From positions 234,972-298,971 of the forward strand of contig CAZCCG010000002.1 of the NCBI GenBank assembly GCA_964497535.1: a DNA stretch of 64,000 nt, written 5' to 3'. Of this stretch, positions 4,647 to 64,000 are shown one piece after another. A program made the translations under genes and the position numbers. Below the pieces are notes generated by a model. The model was not told where the DNA came from, ran no database searches, and saw nothing but the letters and a program-made list of their open reading frames with translations. The DNA comes from an uncultured Gammaproteobacteria bacterium. GTDB taxonomy: Bacteria > Patescibacteriota > Microgenomatia > Levybacterales > UBA12049. Every line of letters begins with the position of its first letter. Position 1 is the stretch's first letter.

Positions 4647-5949
4647 AAATTGAGGTTACATATTCAATATGTTTGTCTGTTAATCCTGGATATACTCCAA
4701 TAAAAAATGTGTTGGTAAAGGATAAATTTGAATTTGCCAGATCACCAATTTGTCTATGAGCTATATTTTTATATCCGGGTTGTCGCAAAATATTCCCTGC
4801 AAATATTGGTCTTGTTTGTATCATATGCTCTTCTAAAAATTGTGTTATTGCAAATCTATCAAAAGGGGCATCTGGACGAATCGTCATAGGGAAAGCAAAC
4901 CAACTGGGATCTGATTTTGGCATAGCCTCGGGTAAAATAAAATATTTTTCATACTTTTTGAAGAATTTCTTATAATGAGCAAAATTTTTCTTTCTTGCTA
5001 TAACAAACTCCGGAAGTCTTTTGATTTGGACCAAACCCATTGCTGCCTGTATTTCAACCGGTTTTATATTATAGCCAATATGTGAAAATATATATTTATG
5101 GTCATAGGGAATCCCATCGATATTATAGTTAAATCGGACACCGCAAACTCCATTTGTCCCTCCTCCTGAAGCTCCACACCAACAGGATCTTCCCCATTCC
5201 CTAATTGATTGGACAATTCTTTTCAGCCTTAAATTGTTGATAAAAACTGCTCCCCCTTCTCCAGCTGTAGTCATATGATGAGCGGGATAAAATGACTCTG
5301 CTGATAAAATTCCGAAAGATCCTGTCTTTTTCCCATTGTAGGTTGATCCTAATGCGTCACAGTTATCTTCCAAAACCAAAAGATTATTCCTATTTGCGAT
5401 TTCCATTATCGGATCCATGTCATTGGGATTACCCAACGTATGAACCAAAAAAATCATTTTTGTTTTTTTACCAATTGCTTTTTCTATATCTTCAGCTTTA
5501 GGATTCAAGGTATGCAGGTCTACATCTACAAAAACAGGCTTTAGTCCATTATGGACTAAGGCTGCAACAACGGCCGGAAACGTACAAGCTGGGGTTATTA
5601 CTTCGTCTCCTGGATTCAAATGCTCGGTAAACTGATACGACATTAAAGAAGCAACAGCTAATAAATCTGCAGAAGATCCAGAGTTGGTCAGATAAGCATG
5701 TTTTGCCCCCATATACTCGGCAAGTTCTTTTTCTAACTGTTCTCCCGCTTCACCCAAACCAAACCACCCCTTCAACATTACATCAACCATTGAGTTAAGT
5801 TCTTCACTTCCATAAACTGCTCCAGCATATCGTACCAAGCTTTTTCCGGGAATAAATTCTGGTTGGTCGATAGCCATATATTGCGAAATGGCTTTGTGGA
5901 TGGATTTAACCAGCGTATCTTTCTTTAAAGAAGAGTTCATAATAAACAT
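4618..5949 (-). CDS. rfbH: PMP-dependent 3-dehydrase of the DegT/RfbH family. Resembles CDP-6-deoxy-D-xylo-4-hexulose-3-dehydrase (E1/RfbH/DdhC). True start probably the internal Met at about 5940.
   Basis: 443 aa, longer than ordinary DegT aminotransferases. Active-site region SFYPAHHMTTAGEGG has His where transaminases have the PLP-binding Lys, as in E1/ColD. Cysteines C197, C256, C258, C269 form C-X58-C-X1-C-X10-C, close to the E1 [2Fe-2S] motif C-X57-C-X1-C-X7-C. LVHTLGNP motif also present. Confidence 0.6.
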   Translation of the reverse strand: MFIMNSSLKKDTLVKSIHKAISQYMAIDQPEFIPGKSLVRYAGAVYGSEELNSMVDVMLKGWFGLGEAGEQLEKELAEYMGAKHAYLTNSGSSADLLAVASLMSYQFTEHLNPGDEVITPACTFPAVVAALVHNGLKPVFVDVDLHTLNPKAEDIEKAIGKKTKMIFLVHTLGNPNDMDPIMEIANRNNLLVLEDNCDALGSTYNGKKTGSFGILSAESFYPAHHMTTAGEGGAVFINNLRLKRIVQSIREWGRSCWCGASGGGTNGVCGVRFNYNIDGIPYDHKYIFSHIGYNIKPVEIQAAMGLVQIKRLPEFVIARKKNFAHYKKFFKKYEKYFILPEAMPKSDPSWFAFPMTIRPDAPFDRFAITQFLEEHMIQTRPIFAGNILRQPGYKNIAHRQIGDLANSNLSFTNTFFIGVYPGLTDKHIEYVTSIFDKYIQKHG

Positions 5950-44767: not shown

Positions 44768-46225
44768 TTACTTTTTTAAATTTTCTTTAATGAATTTAAT
44801 ATCGGCTATAATTTGGTTTTTGCTGAAGAGAAATAAGGTACCTAGGTAAACTAACCCTCCACATGCGATCATCAAGACCAATAAATAAATATTGTGTATT
44901 ACCAAAGGATTGAGTATATACAAAACGACACCCATAATAATGGTACTCAGAAGTGGACTTTTGATAGCAGATACTATATTAAAATCCACATATCGTTTGG
45001 CTATTAAGATAAGCGGAATTACCGATACATTAATTATAGCTGTAATGGCAGGAAAGGCATTGAAACCATAGAGATGAATTCCAATGGGGGTAGCAATCCA
45101 AATAAAGACAGTCCAACCAACCATAAAATATAACGTAATTTTAATTTTTCCTATCGCGTTGAGTAAATTTGTGATTGGTATAAGCATAGCAGCAAGTAAA
45201 ATATTCATACCGAAAAAGATAAAAGCCAAAAGAGCCGGCTCCCATTTATGATATTTGGGAATAATTGCAATGATATAGGGCACGATTAATACTAATCCCA
45301 CTACTCCGGGGAATACAAGAGCAGTACTGGCAAAAAGAGACTTTTCAAGTGCAGCCCCCAGCGCTTTTTTGTCATGCTGAAGTCTAGCAAATGAAGAAAA
45401 GGTGATACGGGTAATATTATCTGTGACGATTCGAAGAGGAACATACGTCCACTTCTGGGCAAAGGAGATATATCCGAGCTGATAATCGGGGAGAACTTTA
45501 CCTAAAAATACTGAAGTGAATAAATTATCTTTTATCAATGCTAAAATACTATTAGTCTGAAAAGGAACTCCATAAGAAAGTAAATGCCTCAGTGCCTTAA
45601 TAGAAAAACCAGGCTTAATTGTCCATGGAAAGATAATATACATAGCAATCAGCCCCGAAACTGCACGAACTAATACCGCAATAGAAAAACTATTAATCCC
45701 AAACCCTTTATAAGCCAAACCGACAAGCACCACTGTATAACAAATCGTCTCTACAACTTGAGGAATAACAAATTTATCATATTGCAAATTCCGTTCCATC
45801 AAAATAGAAGGAATTGTCTTAAGCGTTGAGATAAAAAAAGCAATTACAAAAGCTTGCAGTAAAAAGATAGCTTCCTGAGGAAAATGATAAAAATCCCTGA
45901 TTTGATTGGATAATAGAAAAACAAGAACTACTATGACCAATACAATTCCTTCCTGAACTACAAAGGTCGTAGAAAGCTCTTCATCCGTAATAGGATCTTT
46001 TTTTTGGATAAGAGCTCCTCCGAGTCCGATATCTGAAATATATCCTAGAATGCCGACAAATCCTTCTACAATAAAATAAACGCCATAGATAGCAGGAGTC
46101 AAAAGTGCCGCGAGTATCGCATCTCTGCCGAAATTAACCGACTGTATAAATATAGAGCGAGAAACGAATGCAGCTATTCCTTTAATAGAACGACGCGCAA
46201 CCAGTATTGGATCAAAGTCATCCAT
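44768..46225 (-). CDS. Polysaccharide biosynthesis protein / Wzx-like flippase (MOP superfamily), second copy.
   Basis: 485 aa, about 12-14 TM. SRSIFIQSVNFGRDAILAALLTPAIYGVYFIVEGFVGILGYISDIGLGGALIQKK typical of PST flippases. Confidence 0.7.
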   Translation of the reverse strand: MDDFDPILVARRSIKGIAAFVSRSIFIQSVNFGRDAILAALLTPAIYGVYFIVEGFVGILGYISDIGLGGALIQKKDPITDEELSTTFVVQEGIVLVIVVLVFLLSNQIRDFYHFPQEAIFLLQAFVIAFFISTLKTIPSILMERNLQYDKFVIPQVVETICYTVVLVGLAYKGFGINSFSIAVLVRAVSGLIAMYIIFPWTIKPGFSIKALRHLLSYGVPFQTNSILALIKDNLFTSVFLGKVLPDYQLGYISFAQKWTYVPLRIVTDNITRITFSSFARLQHDKKALGAALEKSLFASTALVFPGVVGLVLIVPYIIAIIPKYHKWEPALLAFIFFGMNILLAAMLIPITNLLNAIGKIKITLYFMVGWTVFIWIATPIGIHLYGFNAFPAITAIINVSVIPLILIAKRYVDFNIVSAIKSPLLSTIIMGVVLYILNPLVIHNIYLLVLMIACGGLVYLGTLFLFSKNQIIADIKFIKENLKK

Positions 46226-54015: not shown

Positions 54016-54078
54016 AATTATACTAAAAATACCCGTGCGTTACAAACGGCAGAGATACCTATCGCCTTGTGATTGAAG

Positions 54079-54099
54079 CTGTATTGAGGTAAAATACAG
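54079..54099. other. Perfect 7-bp stem / 7-nt loop hairpin (CTGTATT-gaggtaa-AATACAG) immediately 5' of the tRNA-fragment element.
   Basis: Inverted repeat read directly from sequence. Confidence 0.4.
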
Positions 54100-54106
54100 A
54101 GGCCAC

Positions 54107-54184
54107 GGCCCCATCGTTCCCGATGGCTTACAGCCATCGAGGATCCTCGATGACAACGATCATCGGGACTAGTGGCCTAGGACA
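54107..54184 (+). other. Partial 5' duplicate of tRNA-Glu (positions 1-11 and 12-27) interrupted by a 51-nt nested-palindrome insert at the D-loop position. Likely pseudo-tRNA or structured RNA.
   Basis: GGCCCCATCGT (54107-54117) and CTAGTGGCCTAGGACA (54169-54184) are identical to the 5' 27 nt of the intact tRNA 321 nt downstream. Insert TCCCGATG...CATCGGGA contains the perfect palindrome ATCGAGGATCCTCGAT, a GGCT-tac-AGCC hairpin and a CCATCG/CGATGG pair. The whole element is additionally closed by AGGCCAC (54100-54106) / GTGGCCT (54172-54178). Confidence 0.5.
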
Positions 54185-54190
54185 AACGGA

Positions 54191-54442
54191 ATGTATACTT
54201 ATATTCTGAAAAGTCATCAGAATGGGAAATATTATATTGGTAGTACTACTGATATAAAAAATAGAGTTAAATCCCATAACAAAGGTTATTCTAAATACAC
54301 TAAAAGCAGAGGCCCATTCGATTTAATTTACAAAGAAGAATATAATACACTATCAGAGGCAAGAAAAAGAGAAAGTTATCTGAAATCACTCAAAAGTAGA
54401 AAAGCACTTGAAAAAATAATTAAAAACGGCCCCATCGTCTAG
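54191..54442 (+). CDS. GIY-YIG nuclease family protein (small, domain-only, 83 aa).
   Basis: YILKSHQNGKYYIGSTTDIKNRVKSHNKG...EARKRESYLKS matches the GIY-(x10)-YIG motif, catalytic Arg and conserved Glu. The last five codons (NGPIV-stop) are templated by nt 1-15 of the tRNA-Glu gene. Confidence 0.75.
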   Translation: MYTYILKSHQNGKYYIGSTTDIKNRVKSHNKGYSKYTKSRGPFDLIYKEEYNTLSEARKRESYLKSLKSRKALEKIIKNGPIV

Positions 54443-54500
54443 TGGCCTAGGACATCAGGTTCTCATCCTGAAAACTTGGATTCGAATTCCAATGGGGTCA
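54428..54500 (+). tRNA. tRNA-Glu (anticodon CUC).
   Basis: Manual cloverleaf: acceptor GGCCCCA/TGGGGTC (one G-U), D-arm, anticodon stem TCAGG/CCTGA with loop TTCTCAT (CTC at 54462-54464, U33, A37), variable loop AAAC, T-arm TTGGA-TTCGAAT-TCCAA, discriminator A. CCA not encoded. Strong similarity to bacterial tRNA-Glu D-arm (TCGTCTAGTGGCCTAGGAC). Confidence 0.85.
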
Positions 54501-54508
54501 CTAAAATT

Positions 54509-55474: not shown

Positions 55475-55771
55475 TCACGATTCTAGTTCCTGATCGGTAA
55501 GCCCCAGAGCTTTGCCCAAAGCGATCGAGTCAGCCAAAGTTTGCTCAGGAGTACTCTCTTCAATAGCGTTCGTATCAACACCCAGTTTCTTAGCTAATGC
55601 GATCGAGTCAGCAAGCGTTTGTTGTGCTGTTGAAGTCGGTTCTAAATCTCGAGTTGTAGGTAACCCGAGCGTCCCCTCCAATCGTCCGATGTGGTAAACC
55701 AATTGCTGCTGTGTTCGATTCAACGACTCGCCAAGCGGTTGCTCAGGAGTAGATAAAGATCCTTTTTCCAT
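55475..55771 (-). CDS. Small hydrophilic protein (98 aa) containing an internal tandem repeat. Function unknown.
   Basis: Strong SD (AAGGAGGTG) 8 nt upstream of ATG. TTGACT-17-TAATAC promoter-like element upstream. Internal repeat PEQTLADSIALAKKLGVDTNAIEEST / PEQTLADSIALGKALGLTDQELES. G+C visibly higher than neighbours. Confidence 0.6.
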   Translation of the reverse strand: MEKGSLSTPEQPLGESLNRTQQQLVYHIGRLEGTLGLPTTRDLEPTSTAQQTLADSIALAKKLGVDTNAIEESTPEQTLADSIALGKALGLTDQELES

Positions 55772-55968: not shown

Positions 55969-56688
55969 CTAAAATAGAGTTTGTTTAAACCAATTTACTG
56001 TTGCAGATCTAAACTCTTCTCTCCAAGAATCTTGAGATAAGTCATGAGTTGCTCCTTTTATTTCAATCAATTCTTTTCTCTTCGGATGAACAGGTGCATT
56101 AAGAAATGCATTAATCATTTTAGCAGGGATTATAGAATCTTTCTCCGACTCAATAATTAATATATCTCCAGTAAAATTTACTAGACTTCGGATAGCAGGG
56201 GTATTAGTAATATCCGACATATTATTAAATTTATCTTTTTCTATTTGCATAAGTTGTGTAAGAGTCAAACCCATCATAGAATCAGTGTAAGTTGCAGGGG
56301 CACGAAGAACTAAACTTTTAACTTTCCTCTTGTTGCTTACATATGCTGAAATACCTCCTCCAAAACTAGCACCACACATTCCTATCCTTTCATCATCAAT
56401 AGACTCATTTTTTACTAAATAATCATAAGCTTGCAATCCATCTAAAAAACCGTCGTGGACTTTAAAACTATTCCCTTCCGTATTTGATACAGCATGACCA
56501 CGTAAATTAATAGTCAAAGTAATTATTCCAATTTCTGCTAATCTCTCCCCGAGTGGAATATAGTTCTTTTCACTACTACTGAATCCATGAATTAGAATAA
56601 CGCCTGGATTTTTATGTCTTACTGTTTGAGGCAGAATAAGCGTACCTTGTATAACTTTGCCCTTACTACCAAAATTCACTTTCTGCAT
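55969..56688 (-). CDS. Alpha/beta-fold hydrolase (dienelactone hydrolase / S9 peptidase-like).
   Basis: GVILIHGFSSS, nucleophile elbow GMCGASFGGG (G-x-S-x-G), C-terminal His region KGATHDL. 239 aa. Confidence 0.7.
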   Translation of the reverse strand: MQKVNFGSKGKVIQGTLILPQTVRHKNPGVILIHGFSSSEKNYIPLGERLAEIGIITLTINLRGHAVSNTEGNSFKVHDGFLDGLQAYDYLVKNESIDDERIGMCGASFGGGISAYVSNKRKVKSLVLRAPATYTDSMMGLTLTQLMQIEKDKFNNMSDITNTPAIRSLVNFTGDILIIESEKDSIIPAKMINAFLNAPVHPKRKELIEIKGATHDLSQDSWREEFRSATVNWFKQTLF

Positions 56689-56709
56689 AAATCGATTATA
56701 ACATCTCTT

Positions 56710-56757
56710 TTGACTTCAGTATTATCCTCTAGTATAATCTCCTCCGTACATTGATAG
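56710..56757 (+). promoter_or_regulatory. Sigma70-like promoter A: TTGACT-17-TATAAT followed after 7 nt by the conserved 12-mer GTACATTGATAG.
   Basis: -35 at 56710-56715, -10 at 56733-56738, 12-mer at 56746-56757. Drives the four-gene plus-strand cassette. Confidence 0.6.
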
Positions 56758-56789
56758 GTGCAGAAGAAGTATCCGAAAGGGGAACGGCA

Positions 56790-57212
56790 ATGCAAAAACA
56801 CCGCTGGGATGACACCACAATTGGTACCTACTGGACATGGGAGATGCCAGAGTTAGCTCGTGAGCTTCCAATCCTGCTTCAGAAAGCAGGCCGAGTCGAG
56901 ATTCTTTCAGAACCTGACTTCCTCACGCGAGTTGTTATCAGGGTGCATCTTCATCAACCAGCAAAGGTTATCGATTGGGGGCAAAACTGGGGAGACGGCG
57001 TAGCAATCAACTCCGCCACCTATGCATGTTTTTCCCGTGGCTTCTCGGCCAACATGAAGCGACTACCTCGCGAGGGAGATACAGTCATCGAACTCGATAT
57101 CGAGCTGGAGATGAGGACGTTTAAAGAGGGACAGGAAATCACACTCGATGACATGCGTAAAGCGCTTCATGAATTCGCTGAACAGATAACCAAAACATGG
57201 TACTATCACTAG
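56790..57212 (+). CDS. Hypothetical protein (140 aa), first gene of G+C-rich cassette. Start placed at ATG with SD AAAGGGG (the track's TTG start at 56751 is less likely).
   Basis: MQKHRWDDTTIGTYWTWEMPELAREL... No recognisable motif. About 50% G+C. Confidence 0.55.
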   Translation: MQKHRWDDTTIGTYWTWEMPELARELPILLQKAGRVEILSEPDFLTRVVIRVHLHQPAKVIDWGQNWGDGVAINSATYACFSRGFSANMKRLPREGDTVIELDIELEMRTFKEGQEITLDDMRKALHEFAEQITKTWYYH

Positions 57213-57262
57213 CACTCACGCAGTTCATCACTGCAATGCTAGTAGCTCAGAAAGGGGCAACC

Positions 57263-57658
57263 ATGACTACCGATCCCCCAGTCCCTGAAGGAATGGAATG
57301 GGTACGCAGGTCAACTGCTGTTTATCGTCTGGGAATATCCGAGAGAGCGATATCCCAACGGGTAAAGACGGGAAAACTACTCAAACGTGGTGGTCCTAGA
57401 ACTGGTCAGCCTGCGGAAGTGCTAGTTCCCATCCAGATGCAAGACTCTGTTCTTCAACAGTATAGTAAAGTGCTAGAGCAGGGCATCGAATATGGCAAAC
57501 TTCTGCAACAACGCGACCATTTACTCACTCGTCTAGGAGAAACAGAACGCCGGGCGCAAGATGCAGAAGCCAAACTCAGTCAAGCAATGTCAAAGTTGGC
57601 TCAGTATGAAGTGCTTATGAGTACCATAGCTCAATTGATTCCATCGCACCTACGATGA
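57263..57658 (+). CDS. HTH DNA-binding protein (excisionase/MerR-like N-terminal helix-turn-helix plus C-terminal coiled coil), 131 aa.
   Basis: SD AAAGGGG before ATG. WVRRSTAVYRLGISERAISQRVKTGKL is a typical HTH. C-terminal heptad-rich QQRDHLLTRLGETERRAQDAEAKLSQAMSKLAQYEVL. Confidence 0.55.
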   Translation: MTTDPPVPEGMEWVRRSTAVYRLGISERAISQRVKTGKLLKRGGPRTGQPAEVLVPIQMQDSVLQQYSKVLEQGIEYGKLLQQRDHLLTRLGETERRAQDAEAKLSQAMSKLAQYEVLMSTIAQLIPSHLR

Positions 57659-57669
57659 CTATTCTACTC

Positions 57670-57700
57670 GGGCACCCTTCGGGGTGCCCTCTTTCGTTTA
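57670..57700 (+). terminator. Rho-independent terminator: GGGCACCC-TTCG-GGGTGCCC followed by TCTTTCGTTTA.
   Basis: Perfect 8-bp GC-rich stem with TTCG tetraloop and U-rich tail, 12 nt after the HTH gene stop. Confidence 0.7.
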
Positions 57701-57733
57701 TCCTTCTTCAACCTCTCAAAAGATTCAATTACC

Positions 57734-57781
57734 TTTACTTCTTCCCTACTCTTTCCTATAATGCCATCTGTACATTGATAG
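57734..57781 (+). promoter_or_regulatory. Sigma70-like promoter B: TTTACT-17-TATAAT followed after 7 nt by GTACATTGATAG (identical 12-mer and spacing as promoter A).
   Basis: -35 at 57734-57739, -10 at 57757-57762, 12-mer at 57770-57781. Confidence 0.55.
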
Positions 57782-57866
57782 CGAAAATATACCGCTCTGG
57801 CATTATCTTTATAAGTTTGCTTGTAAAAATGATGCTGGGGCGGCAGCAGAAAGTGAGGAACCCTAT

Positions 57867-58139
57867 ATGGGTCAAGGATATACACCTACCTTGGAAGGAT
57901 GGCCTGAGTGCCTGAGCACAGGAGGGAGTCGAGAAACTCTCTTACGACGGCTTGAGAGCGACAGGCAGCTTTACTGGATACGGCCACACCTGATCCAACG
58001 ATTTGGCAGTCTCGAAGCATCGCTGGACTTTATCACTACTCCCCGCAACGACCTGGATGGAAGGACGCTTTGGCAAGCGTTTGGATCGTTTCGGCCAGGA
58101 GAAGTGTTGGTAGTCCAGGATATCCTCAGGCGTCAGTAG
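57867..58139 (+). CDS. Hypothetical protein (90 aa).
   Basis: SD GAGGAA 8 nt upstream of ATG. MGQGYTPTLEGWPECLSTGG... Same strand and composition as the rest of the cassette. Confidence 0.5.
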   Translation: MGQGYTPTLEGWPECLSTGGSRETLLRRLESDRQLYWIRPHLIQRFGSLEASLDFITTPRNDLDGRTLWQAFGSFRPGEVLVVQDILRRQ

Positions 58140-58199
58140 CGAAATGATTCGTAGGGAAACCGCCTTCTTCCCTGCACATCGCCGAAAGGAATAAGCATC

Positions 58200-58796
58200 A
58201 TGGCCGACGATCAGACTAAGGCACATCAATGCTCTTTGTGCAAAACACCTGAAGATCAGGTAAAACTTATAGCTTGCCCCGAAGGCAGCTACTTCTGCGC
58301 CATCTGCGCTCAAAAATGGGCAGACGCCGCGATGGATTTGATCGGCGAAGACCCAATACAGCTTACAGACGCAGATATCGACGAGATCAGTCTTCGTATG
58401 CTCGCTGGGGAATCTGGCCAACCGCTTGAACTCGATGCACTTGGTATGCCTCGAGGACTACGGATCTCTGAAGATAGCTGGAGGGAAATCAAGCAGCACG
58501 TAAACGAAGTACTAGCAAGGAGTACGCCGATGGAACCGCAGGTATGCAAGTCTTACGAAGAAGCCAATCGGGTCAAAGACCGCCACCTACGAGAGCTCGT
58601 AGTACCTTTGACACTTACCGTGGGCGTATACAGCCGCTCCCGGGAAGAGGGAGACCCCGAACAATGGGTAATCGTAGTAGGACTCCGCAGGGAACCTACA
58701 GACCAAGAGCTGCAAGATCTTCCCATGGAGCTTGAAGGCATCCCTGTGCTGTATGAAAGAGAAGGGAGATCACAAGCAGCAAAGAAATCTGTCTAA
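58200..58796 (+). CDS. Cys-rich zinc-ribbon/zinc-finger protein (198 aa), function unknown.
   Basis: SD AAGGAA before ATG. N-terminal CSLC-x11-C-x6-CAIC cluster (C11, C14, C26, C33, C36). Acidic C-terminal half. Confidence 0.55.
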   Translation: MADDQTKAHQCSLCKTPEDQVKLIACPEGSYFCAICAQKWADAAMDLIGEDPIQLTDADIDEISLRMLAGESGQPLELDALGMPRGLRISEDSWREIKQHVNEVLARSTPMEPQVCKSYEEANRVKDRHLRELVVPLTLTVGVYSRSREEGDPEQWVIVVGLRREPTDQELQDLPMELEGIPVLYEREGRSQAAKKSV

Positions 58797-58816
58797 CTAT
58801 CAACGCAACCTACACC

Positions 58817-58852
58817 GCCCCCGAGGCTTCAGCTGAGGGGGCTTTTTTTATT
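58817..58852 (+). terminator. Rho-independent terminator: GCCCCC-(14 nt loop)-GGGGGC followed by T8.
   Basis: GC stem 58817-58822 / 58837-58842 plus TTTTTTTTAT tail, 20 nt after the zinc-ribbon gene stop. Confidence 0.7.
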
Positions 58853-58877
58853 TACAGATTCAAACTATAAAGCTCTA

Positions 58878-61010
58878 CTATTGATCTGAATTTGAAACTG
58901 GAAGAGTAATGTCTTCTCCAGTTCTTGCCGTATGGCTCACTAAAACCCGAGTGGGAATACCGTCTTTCTTCATCACCATACTTCCTCCATTAGAACCGCT
59001 GAGTTTGGCATCATATTTTTGTTCTATTCCTTCAACAGCATGATATGTCGTGCTGCTATATATTTTGCTACAACATTCATCATAAAAAGTGTTTTTCAGC
59101 GCTCCACTACTGATGCTACTTGCAGGGTCATATATTCTGCTGATTGTTGTGCTCAGTTGTAATCCCGGAAATGTTTGTAGTTTTGCTTTAAGCTCCGGGG
59201 TCAGAGGAAGAAATGTAGTCCCAATTGGTACAAATGTATCGGGTATGACATTTTCAAGATATACATTTTGTAGGTATGAATTTCGTGAATCATTGGTAAT
59301 CCCCAGTATTACTTGTGCAAGTACAGAGAGCATTTCATTCTCTCTTTTCGTATCAATTTTATTGGGATTTATAGAAATGAGATACCCGTTTGTATCCTGG
59401 ACTATTTTTTGCCCTGTAGGAGAATAGAGTGTTCCTCTTTTTCCTACCTGAGAAGTATAGGTAAAAGTAGTACCGGGAGTGAATTTATGCAGTAATAGAT
59501 CCCAATCCCACACAATTTTCCATTGTCCGTTTTCATTGACCAAGTTCATTGTTTTATCTTCTGAAAATGCACCAAGGTCTTGTGTTTTATAGATGACATG
59601 AAACTGTACTGATCCGTGGTTTCCAAAAAGAGGAATGGTTCGCTTTTTTTCAGAAACGGTTATATTTTTTACAGTAGCATTGATCAGTGCATTTTGTGCA
59701 ATTTTTCTAAATTGTTCTTGTGTCAACCCATTTTTGCTTGTCTGGGAAATATCTTCTGCATAGATGTCATGGAAATATTGATGGGAAAAATTATAGTAAT
59801 AATCCTGTATCGTAAATGGCTGGGTCGTTACCAGAAGCCAAGTAGTATAAAACAATCCCCCGCATGCCACAATAACAAAAAGAACTAATCCCACAGGTCG
59901 AAGCAGATACTTTTTAAATGCCTGCGCAAAAAGTAAATAGAGGATTGGAACAAAAAGAATTGTATAGCGGACATAAAAAGGAATATTGGTATAGATAAGA
60001 AGAGTTACTAACAAGAAAACGCATATTCCTTTGAGGAAAATATCTTTCTTTCGAGTTATGAGAGTTTTAACAGCAACACCAATACCTGCTACTGTAACAA
60101 TCGGCAGAAAAATCCACCATTCCCTGATCTTCTGAAAGGCTCCAGTAACAACATCTGGAAAATATCCAATAAGAATAGCATCCCATACAGACAAACGAAA
60201 CAATTGATTCTTGCCGTTGTAGTAAACCGATGCCATGTACTTATGCAGCTTGAGATAGTCCAGGATGGTATGACCCATAGCAAAATATCGAAAGTAAGGA
60301 ATAAATACTCCAACCACAAATGTAGCTAAAAATACTATGATAAAAATAAATCTCTTTTTGTAGAAAAGATAAACCAACTCCAAACAAAGAATTACAGGAA
60401 CCAGAAGCGGCGGCTTTGTTTCTGTAAAAAATCCCAGACTCAATCCGCTGATCCCAATCCATAGATACCTTATTTTGTGATTGGTATCGGTAACTGCATA
60501 GAAAAGAAAAAGAAAATTAATAAGGAGAAAAAGAAGCTGCAACAGATCCAGAGTGGTAGTCGTAAAATGAGTATAAACAAACGGCTCAACTACCAGTAAC
60601 GTTGTAGTCATCAGAGCTATTTTTTTATTTTTTAGTAATGCTTTGGCAAAAAAATAGAATGCTACAATAGTACCTATTCCAGTCAAAAATGCGAAGTAAA
60701 TGGGATTATGCAATAGGATAATACTTATGCCGATTAAATAGATTCCAACAGGAGGTTTATTGGCATTTGTCGTTTCGATACTGTCTCCCTGCATCATGCG
60801 ATATCCAGCATAACTATAAATTCCATCATCACCGATGATGCGTTGGGACAAAGGCAATGTCCACTGAGAATGTTCCATTCTATCTTTCCAATAAGAAACG
60901 TTATACTCCTGCAAAAAAAGATATCGGTTAAAATATAGTAATTGAAGAAATTGAAGAATAATGATTGCGAGGCAAAATAAGAAGAGCCGATTTTTTGTAA
61001 TAAAAGTCAT
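58878..61010 (-). CDS. Large membrane protein (710 aa): N-terminal polytopic GT-C-like domain (GDDGIYSYAGY loop motif) plus C-terminal soluble domain of about 330 aa.
   Basis: Long ORF. About 12 TM in the first 390 aa. IGDDGIYSYAGYRMMQG after TM1 resembles the acidic first-loop motif of GT-C enzymes. Confidence 0.55.
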   Translation of the reverse strand: MTFITKNRLFLFCLAIIILQFLQLLYFNRYLFLQEYNVSYWKDRMEHSQWTLPLSQRIIGDDGIYSYAGYRMMQGDSIETTNANKPPVGIYLIGISIILLHNPIYFAFLTGIGTIVAFYFFAKALLKNKKIALMTTTLLVVEPFVYTHFTTTTLDLLQLLFLLINFLFLFYAVTDTNHKIRYLWIGISGLSLGFFTETKPPLLVPVILCLELVYLFYKKRFIFIIVFLATFVVGVFIPYFRYFAMGHTILDYLKLHKYMASVYYNGKNQLFRLSVWDAILIGYFPDVVTGAFQKIREWWIFLPIVTVAGIGVAVKTLITRKKDIFLKGICVFLLVTLLIYTNIPFYVRYTILFVPILYLLFAQAFKKYLLRPVGLVLFVIVACGGLFYTTWLLVTTQPFTIQDYYYNFSHQYFHDIYAEDISQTSKNGLTQEQFRKIAQNALINATVKNITVSEKKRTIPLFGNHGSVQFHVIYKTQDLGAFSEDKTMNLVNENGQWKIVWDWDLLLHKFTPGTTFTYTSQVGKRGTLYSPTGQKIVQDTNGYLISINPNKIDTKRENEMLSVLAQVILGITNDSRNSYLQNVYLENVIPDTFVPIGTTFLPLTPELKAKLQTFPGLQLSTTISRIYDPASSISSGALKNTFYDECCSKIYSSTTYHAVEGIEQKYDAKLSGSNGGSMVMKKDGIPTRVLVSHTARTGEDITLPVSNSDQ

Positions 61011-61020
61011 AAATTCTAGT

Positions 61021-61461
61021 TTAAACTAAATCTTTTACCTGCTCTCCTCTATTTATATATATTTCAATAATTGCTTTGTGTCCGGGTAAAATATTTTGAG
61101 GTAAATGTTCAAAAGAGTACCACTCCCATCCTTTGCATTTTTCAGGTTCTTTATTTTCAGGCTCTCCAATTACATTTTTTGCCACCATACCGAAGTGGAT
61201 AAAATTATAGCTATCTTGTAATTCTCTAACTACCCCAACATATTCCAATTCCTCTATTGCCAATCCGCATTCTTCTTCCAATTCTCTTTTTGCCGCATCC
61301 GTAATGGCCTCTTGAAGTTCTATCCTTCCTCCTGGCAACCCAAACCACCCTGCTCTGTAGGCATTGATCCTTTCACCCAGCAAAACCTCCCCCTGCGAAT
61401 TTGTAACAATAACTGCAACTCCTATATGTTCTTTTTGAGTAGAAACTTGTTCCTCTGCCAT
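61021..61461 (-). CDS. NUDIX hydrolase.
   Basis: Perfect Nudix box GGRIELQEAITDAAKRELEEECGL (G-x5-E-x7-REUxEExGU). 146 aa. Confidence 0.85.
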   Translation of the reverse strand: MAEEQVSTQKEHIGVAVIVTNSQGEVLLGERINAYRAGWFGLPGGRIELQEAITDAAKRELEEECGLAIEELEYVGVVRELQDSYNFIHFGMVAKNVIGEPENKEPEKCKGWEWYSFEHLPQNILPGHKAIIEIYINRGEQVKDLV

Positions 61462-61510
61462 GTGGACAATTATATATGATGATGAATTGAAAAGGTAGAA
61501 GGGACTGTGT

Positions 61511-61540
61511 CAATCTCAACCTAAAAACCCAAGCACTGTA
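61511..61540 (-). terminator. Weak candidate intrinsic terminator for the stress-protein gene (CCAAG-cactgta-CTTGG, then GTTTTT on the minus strand).
   Basis: Short stem, modest U tract. Low confidence. Confidence 0.25.
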
Positions 61541-61574
61541 CTTGGATCTTTAGGAACAACCCACCAAAACGAGG

Positions 61575-62266
61575 TTAAGAAATTTTCTTCCTGCGCTTTC
61601 GTGAGCGTGTTGTTCCGCCCTTTGCTCCCATTGTCATATATGAACCTTTATCAAATCGGGATCTCGGAACATAATTCTCATCGATATCTGCATCAACTTC
61701 TCGTCTCATAAATCGATCCATAGGTTGAGTTACGGAATTGATATCGGTTGCACCATTTTGTTCCATGATATTCCATACTTCGTCTTCCCGATCGGCATAT
61801 GTTGGTACCGCCAGAAGAATCGCACCTTCACGAATTTTGCTTTCATATACTTCTGCCTGTTCCCGTGGAATTCCAAAACCCATAAGTGCTCCGATAATTC
61901 CTCCTGCTACTGCTCCTGTCGCGGCACCTGATACGGTAGTTGCTGCTGCTCCGGTAAGACCAAGCGCTGCTGCCAAAGGACCACCAATGAGAATCCCTCC
62001 AATGCCAGGAATTGCTATGGTACCTACTCCTACTAATAAACCTGCAATACCACCGACAACTGCCCCTGTGGTAGCACCGGTAACTGCTCCCTCTGCAACA
62101 TCTACTCCGGTTGTATCGGAAATATCATGCGCTTCATCTGTATCACGCATAACAAGGGAAATATCTTTGGTGCGATATCCTGCAGTTTCCAGATCGGAAA
62201 TGGCGTTTTCCGCATTATCACGATTTGTATAAATACCAAATATTGTTTTTGCAATTTGCATCATAT
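61575..62266 (-). CDS. General-stress-protein-like (YflT/DUF1269-type N-terminal domain) with Gly/Ala-rich glycine-zipper membrane segment. About 230 aa.
   Basis: Start set at ATGATG with SD AGGAGGTG 5 nt upstream (the track's start at 62288 lacks an SD). N-terminal IFGIYTNRDNAENAISDLETAGYRTKDISLV. Central GAVTGATTGAVVGGIAGLLVGVG...GGIIGALMG repeats. Confidence 0.55.
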
Positions 62267-62384
62267 TCACCTCCTTTAAAACTCTCATTCCATTCTAAAA
62301 AAGGGAAATAAAATCTAAACAATAATTACGTAAGAGTTAAGAAAGAGTACGTCTACGGCCAAGTGCTTTACGCTTTACGCTTAA

Positions 62385-64000
62385 TTAGTCTGCTTTATAT
62401 GGGGAGGGTGCGTGAAGTACAGGACGTTGAGAAGCATGTGACTCATGTCCCTTTATTACTAATGGTTTTTTGAAAGCAACAGGTAATATTTCATCCATAT
62501 GGCTTACGAATACAAATTTGAGATCCCGCAATACTTCTTTTGGCACATCTTCCAAATCTTTCTTGTTTTCTTTCGGCAGGATTATAGTCTTGAGCCCTGC
62601 CCGATGAGCTGCTATTACTTTCTCTTTTACTCCTCCAATTTCTAAGACCCGTCCGCGAAGGGTTACTTCCCCTGTCATTCCTACTTTGCGATTCACAGGG
62701 ATTTTGGTAAGGGCCGATAAAATCGCGGTGGTTATTGCCCCTCCTGCTGAAGGACCATCTTTGGGAACAGCACCTTCCGGTACATGAACGTGTACATCGA
62801 GCTTATTATAAAACCCTTCTGCCAAACCAAATTGCTTTGCTCGTGCACGAATATATGAAAGTGCCGCTTGGCATGATTCCTTCATAACATCTCCCAGCTG
62901 TCCCGTAAGAAGCAGATGTCCATGTCCGGGCATCAGAGCTACTTCTATAAAAAGGATATCTCCGCCTGCTTCAGTCCATGCAAGGCCGGTGGACATACCG
63001 AATTCGTCCTTCTTTTCAATTAGTGTAGAACGATACCGAATGGTTCCCAAATATTTCGTGACATCGGATTCAGTTATAACGGTCTTACCTTTCTTCCCTT
63101 CAGCCACTTTTCTGGCAACTTTTCTAAAAAGTGTAGCGAGTTGTCGTTCAAGATTTCGTACCCCTGCCTCACGGGTGAAATGATTAATAACAAAGCGGAC
63201 TGCGTCATCGCTGACTTCTACCTTACTATCTGAAAGGCCATGCATTTCCATTTGTTTTTTGACAAGAAAATTTTTGGCTATCTGGAATTTCTCATCATGG
63301 GTATATCCGGCAAAATGGATAATTTCCAAACGATCACGGAGAGCAGGAGGAATGGTATCCAATACGTTGGCTGTTGTCACAAACATAACATTTGAGAGAT
63401 CAAATGGTGCTTCCAGATAATGATCTGAGAATTGACTGTTTTGCTCAGGATCAAGTGCTTCCAACAGCGCTGATGAAGGATCACCACGAAAATCTGTACC
63501 AACTTTATCTATTTCATCAAGCATAAAAACCGGATTTTTGGTTCCTGCGTCTTTGATGCCTTGGATAATGCGTCCCGGAAGGGCACCTACATAGGTTCGT
63601 CTATGTCCTCGAATTTCAGCCTCATCACGAATTCCTCCCAGTGATACTCGAACAAATTCACGACCCAATGCGCGCGCAATTGATTTCCCAATCGATGTCT
63701 TTCCTACTCCTGGTGGTCCGACAAAACACAAGATGGGTCCTTTCATTTTCCCGGAGAGTTTGTGTACTGCCAGGTATTCCAGAATCCGCTCTTTTGCCTT
63801 TTGCAATCCATAATGATCTTCATCCAATGTCTTTTCGGCTGTCTTAATATCAACACTATCTTTGCTTTCCTTACTCCAGGGAAGACTTACTAACCATTCC
63901 AGATAATTCCGAATATAACCGGCTTCCGGATTGAATTGATTCATTTGAGCAAGTTTGCGGACTTCCTTACGTGCTTTATCTTCTACTTCTTCAGGCATCC
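62385..64000 (-). CDS. lon: ATP-dependent Lon protease (La), C-terminal about 540 aa. N-terminus lies beyond window end.
   Basis: Walker [16 protein letters not shown]. Walker [10 protein letters not shown]. Proteolytic domain [20 protein letters not shown] (catalytic Ser) and downstream Lys. Strong collinearity with Lon. ORF runs to the window edge. Confidence 0.9.

Follow-up and report, generated by a model that had tools for sequence, protein, structure and literature searches.

A minimal GIY-YIG gene and conserved hairpins within a partial tRNA-Glu duplication: a candidate homing-type cassette of tRNA genes

Here we analysed a window of 64,000 nucleotides (nt) from contig CAZCCG010000002.1 (positions 234,972 to 298,971; assembly GCA_964497535.1), in which the 5' part of a tRNA-Glu(CTC) gene is present twice, with a palindromic insert in the upstream copy and a small open reading frame (ORF) for a GIY-YIG nuclease domain between both copies. 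Our reading, to which we would assign a probability of about 0.6, is that this locus is a member of a widespread family of selfish homing-type cassettes residing in tRNA genes, each consisting of a minimal GIY-YIG gene and one or more conserved GC-rich hairpins. Relative to the empty allele the locus shows a net gain of 321 bp, located within the first 27 nt of tRNA-Glu(CTC), and the GIY-YIG ORF is the only gene in this insertion. An earlier note on this DNA had taken the arrangement for the mark left by a small element, selfish or of homing type, which had targeted the tRNA gene and regenerated its 5' end, and the syntenic empty sites, occupied sites and ORF-less relics presented below support that description.

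The tRNA-Glu locus and its GIY-YIG gene

The intact tRNA-Glu, with anticodon CTC, occupies positions 54428 to 54501 of the forward strand and was called by both ARAGORN and Rfam (57.5 bits), in agreement with the earlier statement that the downstream copy is complete. Its nt 1-27 are present a second time upstream on the same strand and, as the earlier note had it, are split there after nt 11: a repeat of 13 nt (tRNA nt 1-11, copied at 54107-54117, plus 2 nt upstream; 54105-54117 equals 54426-54438) has a spacing of 321 nt, and a repeat of 16 nt (tRNA nt 12-27; 54169-54184 equals 54439-54454) has a spacing of 270 nt. The 51-nt insert between these two pieces (54118-54168) contains the palindromes TCCCGATG/CATCGGGA, the 18-nt CATCGAGGATCCTCGATG and CGATGGCT-tac-AGCCATCG, occurs once in the window against 0 occurrences expected by chance, and can be removed to restore tRNA nt 1-27 cleanly. 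Between the two tRNA copies lies the ORF, also on the forward strand (54191-54442) and encoding 83 amino acids (aa). Its 3' end, formed by four sense codons (G-P-I-V) and a TAG stop, is supplied by nt 1-15 of the intact tRNA, with the TAG at nt 13-15; the ORF thus ends within the tRNA as had been claimed, but the five codons attributed to the tRNA besides the stop are five only if the stop is counted. The same architecture is carried by independent assemblies, and an assembly or duplication artefact was therefore rejected.

The predicted protein matches the GIY-YIG domain of Pfam (PF01541) over residues 1-70 with 63.1 bits, against a cut-off of 22.6 (E=3e-17), and no other Pfam domain, and hence no DNA-binding domain, was found in its 83 aa, of which the last four are encoded by the tRNA. 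Among 25 homologues R25, H29 and E61 show no variation and Y15 and G17 hardly any, residues which we take, from general knowledge of the fold, to have the catalytic roles of the Tyr of GIY/YIG, the Arg, the His/Tyr and the metal-binding Glu. The ORF appears to be functional, because these catalytic residues do not vary and its median dN/dS is 0.15. Of the solved structures, PDB 1ZG2 matches best (E=1e-10), followed by 1YWL (E=3.7e-8), with some 80 residues aligned in either case; judged by its sequence the protein belongs to the minimal GIY-YIG group UPF0213/COG2827, showing the stand-alone domain of about 80-110 aa, similar to BH0048/EF2693, by which that group is recognised, and its similarity to models of group I introns and homing endonucleases is only marginal. 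Homologues with identities of 47-73% were traced to their contigs, and the best homologues of both the ORF and the adjacent glycosyltransferase bear the names Levybacteria, Daviesbacteria and Patescibacteria. Phage and plasmid homologues found by tblastn are 35-46% identical; phages or plasmids as vectors were tried as an idea and set aside, as two phage loci that were inspected have no adjoining tRNA and the inspected homologues are not linked to tRNA genes.

The structure of the insert was examined in an alignment of nine sequences. Two tandem hairpins on the forward strand, hairpin 1 (54118-54143; TCCCGATGGC-ttaca-GCCATCG(A)GGA) and hairpin 2 (54144-54168; TCC(T)CGATG-acaacgat-CATCGGGA), the latter with the stem sequence of the former, are 92.6% paired in this alignment, compared with 56% or less in slid controls, and nine cells of the alignment are changed on both sides of a pair, a number reached in 0 of 500 shuffles; compensatory changes in hairpin 1 are seen across the nine relatives. 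The nested palindromes of the earlier note are present in the letters, but the relatives favour the tandem arrangement: the nested fold shows double changes in only four cells (a value reached in 187 of 500 shuffles) and hence no excess covariation, and it pairs almost as well (about 91-93% in both models) because both stems have one common sequence. All nine sequences share the core CCGAT/ATCGG, and six of them close hairpin 2 with a U.G pair. Folding of 54079-54190, which the note had proposed, gave -44.9 kcal/mol (z = -4.9 against shuffled sequences). Searching Rfam at E<=1 retrieved only tRNA in the window and only tRNA matches in 20 related loci, and counts of G.T against A.C mismatches in automatically detected hairpins, considered as an indicator of RNA or DNA function, comprised too few mismatches to be used.

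Empty sites, relics and relatives in many phyla

Ten relatives of the Glu clade, all from genomes of the Candidate Phyla Radiation (CPR), have the window's order of parts (L001, L002, L008, L010, L012-L015, L020 and the distant L046; loci are cited by our own labels), namely a promoter with a -10-like element, tRNA nt 1-11, two hairpins, nt 12-27, ATG, ORF and tRNA-Glu. The hairpins follow nt 11 in every one of them, and the ORF stops at the GTC TAG of the tRNA in all except L020, where the stop is about 80 nt before the tRNA. L001, L002 and L008 represent three different gene neighbourhoods, and share -10-like elements TAAAAT/TAGAAT, stems TCCCGATG/CATCGGGA and the lack of any spacer between ORF and tRNA. 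In L001 and L002 the upstream fragment is closer to the Levybacteria-type tRNA-Glu consensus than the adjacent tRNA is (26 versus 23 and 25 versus 22 of 27 nt), which may point to a fragment able to move together with the cassette, or to replacement of the tRNA.

Empty sites, the comparison that the earlier note had called for, were found in metagenomes. A scan with the 5' half of the tRNA and its anticodon loop as the query gave at least 120 loci, about 92 of them distinct. Among the roughly 92 distinct loci listed, two are occupied (L166 and L101) and at least three are relics without the ORF (L121, L195 and L169); a profile search of the 120 loci listed placed a GIY-YIG ORF directly upstream of the tRNA in L166 and L101 only. 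Four empty sites (L103, L112, L139 and L201) share with the window the upstream glycosyltransferase (63-71% identity) in the same orientation, and in all four the tRNA is 68-112 nt from the glycosyltransferase start codon. In L112 and L139 a ggTAAAAT box stands 10-13 nt ahead of tRNA nt 1, and in the window the same box stands 11 nt ahead of the 5' fragment. Since this -10 box stands at a like distance in empty sites and window, the upstream fragment appears to mark the ancestral tRNA start, and the locus would have gained 321 bp. Two further syntenic sites, L001 and L212/L213 (glycosyltransferase 74% identical), are occupied, and the ORF of L212 is frameshifted. The three relics keep the 5' fragment, their hairpins are degenerate or absent and the ORF is gone; truncated ORFs are seen in L031, L057 and L066. 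Such a pattern of gain, decay and loss is typical of homing endonuclease genes. No relatives of the flanking glycosyltransferase above 75% identity were found, so that no within-species comparison could be made.

Some further tRNA-Glu loci from these searches are recorded here as observations. L107 (1422-1720) has two tRNA-Glu copies 220 nt apart with the same leader, the first with a disrupted T-arm, and no GIY-YIG ORF between them. In the metagenomic pairs L168/L205 and L141/L179, which have an Acidobacteria-like tRNA-Glu, homology to the tRNA ends in or just after the anticodon loop (break points ..TTCTCAA|GAAAGCCTGCC.. and ..CAATCTG|CTAATACAAG.., respectively), an insertion or a truncation at the classical position of tRNA introns.

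The arrangement in the window is one case of a family-wide phenomenon. A protein-profile scan of one genome per species yielded at least 384 confirmed relatives, of which 80 loci were kept, and the statistics given here refer to 96 ORFs in non-redundant loci among the matches listed. A same-strand tRNA lies within 60 nt of 70 of the 96 ORFs and within 300 nt of 86, and the adjoining tRNAs bear 19 isotype labels, one being an uncalled tRNA-like copy. Record titles name Patescibacteria, Bacteroidota, Chloroflexota, Acidobacteriota, Omnitrophota, Margulisiibacteriota and others. The ORF is just upstream of the tRNA in 57 cases, with its stop codon inside the tRNA in 39 of them, and just downstream in 13. 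A copy of at least 9 nt of the 5' part of the tRNA precedes the ORF in 46 of the 57 loci of the upstream type, and a tRNA copy of at least 9 nt follows it in all 13 of the downstream type; in a control with tRNAs of other isotypes, the value was 72 of 1001 (7%). ORF clades track tRNA isotype (the nearest neighbour has the same isotype in 36 cases versus 19), as expected for site-specific homing. Copies in tandem at one tRNA are 92-98% identical, and those at different tRNAs of one contig 30-45%.

The hairpins follow the same rule. Throughout the family GC-rich hairpins are found always in the spare, non-functional tRNA copy and never in the intact tRNA; they are inserted into, or replace, the D-arm, anticodon arm or T-arm of the spare copy. 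Three hairpin families recur across phyla (CCCGAT..ATCGGG; CCTGCCTGCCGGCAGGCAGG; and CCCGCC..GGCGGG with the related TCCCGC..GCGGGA), and the insertion point is fixed for each isotype: 11/12 in Glu, 22/23 in Arg-ACG/CCG, 18/19 in Arg-TCT and Gln, 6-7 in Asn, 9/10 in Asp and 20/21 in Phe. L101 obeys this fixed point despite very different ORF and hairpin sequences. Going beyond the earlier note, the palindromic insert is a conserved and integral part of the cassette at an isotype-fixed position rather than a later accident in a decaying duplicate, and the sequences point to a phenomenon that extends over 19 isotypes and many phyla. In many loci the intact tRNA is also followed, on its 3' side, by a hairpin-interrupted tRNA copy. 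L011 and L016, which have no upstream fragment, carry such a tRNA-Glu copy downstream, interrupted after nt 11 by the double hairpin. L212 combines the upstream fragment with a tRNA-Glu(CTC) that is complete in length and folds well, is split at 11/12 and has no adjoining ORF. Since such downstream hairpin-split copies are found in varied loci, the recurrent unit appears to be a triple of ORF, intact tRNA and hairpin-bearing tRNA copy. The split tRNA-Glu of L212 (JGI 3300001380 contig; minus strand, approximately 905-1035 in locus coordinates) is of another sequence type, with a GCCGCG acceptor, and stands 7 nt after the intact tRNA-Glu.

Tandem arrays of a unit made of fragment, hairpin, fragment and ORF were found in L047, L052 and L064, with a period of approximately 304-308 nt in L047 and L052. 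The arrays are located at 3606-4500 in L052, 120-810 in L047 and 2688-3560 in L064, and each ends in one intact tRNA; in L052 a remnant ORF comes next, along with a further hairpin-split copy of the tRNA and its terminator. In L085 a Flavo-1 RNA (Rfam RF01705, 50 bits; 4780-4852) lies about 500 nt downstream of a GIY-YIG/tRNA-Ala cassette.

A promoter-like site on the forward strand of the window, TTGTGA-17-TAAAAT (54067-54095; 9 of 12 matches), whose ggTAAAAT box is shared with the syntenic empty sites, is probably the native tRNA-Glu promoter, now driving fragment, ORF and tRNA; no convincing promoter of the ORF's own was found. The leader AGGCCAC (54100-54106, forward strand) is complementary to GTGGCCT (54172-54178) in the D-loop part of the fragment, and folding supports their pairing, so that the clamp described earlier does exist in the window; gccac leaders are also present in L008 and L101, where the pairing is partial, and the clamp is not conserved across the clade. 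A further perfect hairpin which had been noted (54079-54099) is likewise present, but it is missing in relatives and overlaps the -10 hexamer TAAAAT (54090-54095), and it is therefore probably not transcribed. The AGGA at 54179-54182, 8 nt before the ATG, may serve as ribosome-binding site, and this layout recurs in relatives. The window has a low G+C content of about 0.35 and belongs to a genome of CPR/Microgenomates-like type, and the neighbours of the locus are genes for envelope glycosylation (GT2 and PMT_2/PMT-type) and a hydrolase. Over the last 8 kb of the window (56000-64000) G+C reaches about 0.43, up from about 0.35. At 45076-45089, within a minus-strand ORF, 14 nt are identical to tRNA-Glu nt 57-70 (blastn E ~0.01); this is the only other tRNA-like match in the window and is probably due to chance. 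Pfam gave no match for a 98-aa ORF on the minus strand (55475-55771), in which a sequence is repeated internally (..EQTLADSIALAKKLG.. / ..EQTLADSIALGKALG..).

Movement of the cassette and competing explanations

The cassette would work like a free-standing homing endonuclease gene. The nuclease may break the tRNA gene, and repair against an occupied copy may transfer a block that is inserted in one register (hairpins, tRNA nt 12-27, ORF and regenerated nt 1-11), so that the original promoter and nt 1-11 would stay upstream and a complete tRNA would be re-formed downstream. Copying of the block may proceed as homing, or else through a Campbell-like crossover to one side of the hairpin; recombination 5' of the hairpin would give the type seen in the window, and recombination 3' of it the other type, in which the intact tRNA stands upstream. 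Should the resident intact copy be cut and repaired against the spare one, the tandem arrays could arise, as experiments have demonstrated for phage SegB (PMC13096335). The hairpin may mark the spare tRNA copy at a fixed site and thereby inactivate it. Transcription of the ORF would start at the captured tRNA promoter, making the ORF the leader of a tRNA precursor, and, its stop codon being inside the tRNA, cleavage by RNase P at the tRNA 5' end would strip that stop and leave a non-stop mRNA, keeping expression low. After fixation the ORF may decay, and the cassette may be lost by recombination between the repeats.

What the hairpins do within such a cycle admits several answers. We rank first an interruption of the spare copy at the site of the nuclease, by which that copy would be immunised or inactivated. 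Ranked second is a structure recognised by an Slx1-like nuclease (PMC1564403, PMC7017083), and third a stabilising or insulating effect on mRNA ends. An anti-deletion role by splitting the homology was considered and found weak, several loci keeping uninterrupted repeats of 22-36 nt. A more far-reaching interpretation, which we put forward only tentatively, is that the hairpins are the cis-acting substrate or guide of an Slx1-like, catalytic-domain-only nuclease, defining a new selfish class specific to tRNA genes. One tRNA copy would be disabled by a stable hairpin whose position is fixed (nt 11/12 in tRNA-Glu), while a replacement tRNA, brought along or regenerated by the element, would be linked to the nuclease gene, in at least 19 isotypes and many phyla; as loss of the element would risk leaving only the broken tRNA, the strategy would be addiction-like.

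Several points weigh against a homing-type cassette. Presence and absence among relatives that are 63-75% identical cannot separate gains from losses, and no simple one-step model fits, since the upstream fragment usually follows the local tRNA but does not do so in L001 and L002. Cleavage by the nuclease and its specificity are predictions from the sequence, and an 83-aa domain without a DNA-binding module would need a partner, dimerisation or recognition of structure to achieve sequence-specific homing. Over nt 1-27 the intact tRNA of the locus does not differ from empty alleles, which leaves no obvious immunity to self-cleavage, and it is the spare copy that the hairpins split. The identity of 30-45% between copies at different tRNAs of one contig, together with long-term purifying selection, also fits an old domesticated family. 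Finally, the frequencies, which refer to the matches listed in both large scans, are not unbiased.

Such domestication is one of the alternatives to be weighed. In that case the GIY-YIG protein would serve the host, for example in tRNA or nucleic-acid metabolism, and the fragment and hairpins would be a 5' untranslated region (or, elsewhere, a 3' element) that tunes stability, processing or translation of the mRNA within the tRNA precursor. Purifying selection on the ORF, old and isotype-specific ORF clades, a leader that folds far better than its shuffles and the AGGA of the fragment at ribosome-binding distance from the ATG are all compatible with this, as is the conservation of hairpin pairing by compensatory changes, in which the U.G closing pair (6 of 9) and tolerated one-sided bulges suit a single-stranded structure of the sense strand; moreover, a minimal GIY-YIG domain fused to a TrmH-like tRNA methyltransferase has been noted (PMC1564403). 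Nevertheless we hold domestication to be improbable, because it leaves unexplained the clean syntenic empty sites, the ORF-less relics and the frameshifted ORF, as well as the tandem arrays and the full-length hairpin-interrupted tRNA copies without an ORF; it offers no reason why the side of the ORF on which the hairpins are placed, 5' or 3', differs between loci while they are always in the dead copy, and no Rfam family fits the structure. The related suggestion of the earlier note, a structured RNA co-opting tRNA sequence, may hold for the hairpins themselves but fails on the presence/absence polymorphism and the tandem arrays.

Two unrelated events, namely a partial tandem duplication of the tRNA with the ORF between the copies and the later arrival of a palindromic element in the dispensable copy (of the type of miniature inverted-repeat transposable elements or repetitive extragenic palindromes), are in our opinion more doubtful still. 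The hairpin does behave as a clean insertion, some spare copies have two or three hairpins (L041, L048 and L022) and some hairpin-interrupted copies have no adjoining ORF (L212 and L016). Against this, the hairpins are not dispersed: no further copies of the palindromes, and no second GIY-YIG gene, were found elsewhere in the 64-kb window, and in 564 kb 76 of 110 matches to the hairpin motif lie within 200 nt of a GIY-YIG ORF. The position of insertion is moreover constant for each isotype or ORF clade, the same hairpin families travel with the ORF across phyla, and no target-site duplications were found flanking the hairpins. It is also conceivable that the repeat is of att type, left by a classical integrase-driven island in the tRNA gene that was later deleted to a remnant, as a partial tRNA duplication that regenerates an intact tRNA is, by general knowledge, a hallmark of tRNA-targeting integrative elements. 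This origin we regard as highly unlikely in view of a net insertion of merely 321 bp, of the duplicated part being the 5' and not the 3' part of the tRNA, of the same compact unit in dozens of genomes and of the neighbours of the locus, ordinary genes of envelope glycosylation with no integrase or phage gene among them.

Significance and comparison with known systems

No description of GIY-YIG genes within hairpin-bearing tRNA duplications was found in full-text searches, in which coverage of subscription journals is thin, and a family of putative selfish elements that settle in tRNA genes and yet leave them working is apparently undescribed. Few bacterial proteins lacking a known role are as common as the small stand-alone GIY-YIG proteins (UPF0213/COG2827), and one large branch of these is linked, by the present locus and its relatives, to residence in tRNA gene duplications with conserved hairpins. 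If the cassette reading is true, it would add a new and very compact selfish element (about 320 bp) that spares its essential target by duplication rather than splicing, and would account for partial or hairpin-interrupted tRNA pseudogenes and tandem tRNA arrays in genomes of CPR, Bacteroidota, Chloroflexota and other bacteria. It would also carry a warning for annotation, as these ORFs run into tRNAs, and could yield a minimal structure- or site-specific nuclease.

Among known systems, the phage GIY-YIG endonuclease SegB resides among tRNA genes, cuts inside them and promotes co-conversion and a nuclease-dependent tandem amplification of tRNA plus segB, aided by microhomology of the tRNA's 5' end with the 3' end of the gene (PMC13096335). 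By behaviour SegB, in the tRNA cluster of T-even phages, would be the closest known system: both have a GIY-YIG catalytic domain encoded beside tRNA genes, and the arrays of L047, L052 and L064 mirror SegB amplification. SegB, which is encoded in phage genomes, has about 220 aa and several domains, DNA-binding modules included. The protein of the window, in contrast, has 83 aa and only the catalytic domain, and its family is chromosomal (CPR, Bacteroidota, Chloroflexota and other phyla), lies within a partial tRNA duplication and is accompanied by conserved hairpins. As expected of Seg-like genes, the locus shows presence/absence polymorphism at a conserved site as well as degeneration and loss (the frameshift, truncations and relics mentioned above); no fused DNA-binding domain, which in Seg-like enzymes gives a long asymmetric recognition site, was identified in the 83-aa protein with Pfam. 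Because a DNA-binding domain, which is a defining Seg feature, is missing, we describe the cassette as homing-like and do not place it in the Seg family. The parallel with SegB-driven amplification of phage tRNA genes suggests that GIY-YIG nucleases and the dynamics of tRNA genes are linked more generally.

In size and in having a single domain, the protein equals members of UPF0213/COG2827 such as YhbQ of E. coli and YazA of B. subtilis (PDB 1ZG2, 1YWL). The yazA gene sits in a conserved operon, and to our knowledge genes of the YhbQ/YazA type are single-copy, without known function, not within tRNA duplications and without a hairpin partner. UPF0213-type proteins have been classed with the structure-selective nuclease Slx1 in a prokaryotic 'Slx1 cluster' (PMC1564403, PMC7017083), and membership of this class suggests hairpin or branched DNA as substrate. 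The window locus resembles tRNA-targeting integrative elements, that is, phages and integrative and conjugative elements with their att sites, in that insertion into a tRNA gene duplicates part of it and regenerates a functional tRNA. Those elements use tyrosine or serine recombinases, duplicate the 3' part of the gene and are kilobases long, unlike the element described here, which has no recombinase gene, a net gain of 321 bp, a duplicated 5' part and a hairpin in the spare copy. The coupling of a small nuclease gene to conserved GC-rich hairpins recalls REP/RAYT and IS200/IS605 systems, where the nucleases are of the HUH type and the hairpins dispersed or terminal. Lastly, group I introns that carry homing endonuclease genes in tRNA genes are likewise selfish insertions that spare the function of the tRNA. 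No group I ribozyme core was detected with Rfam in the window or in 20 related loci, and unlike these introns, which keep tRNA function by splicing, the window keeps it by a second, uninterrupted copy of the tRNA.

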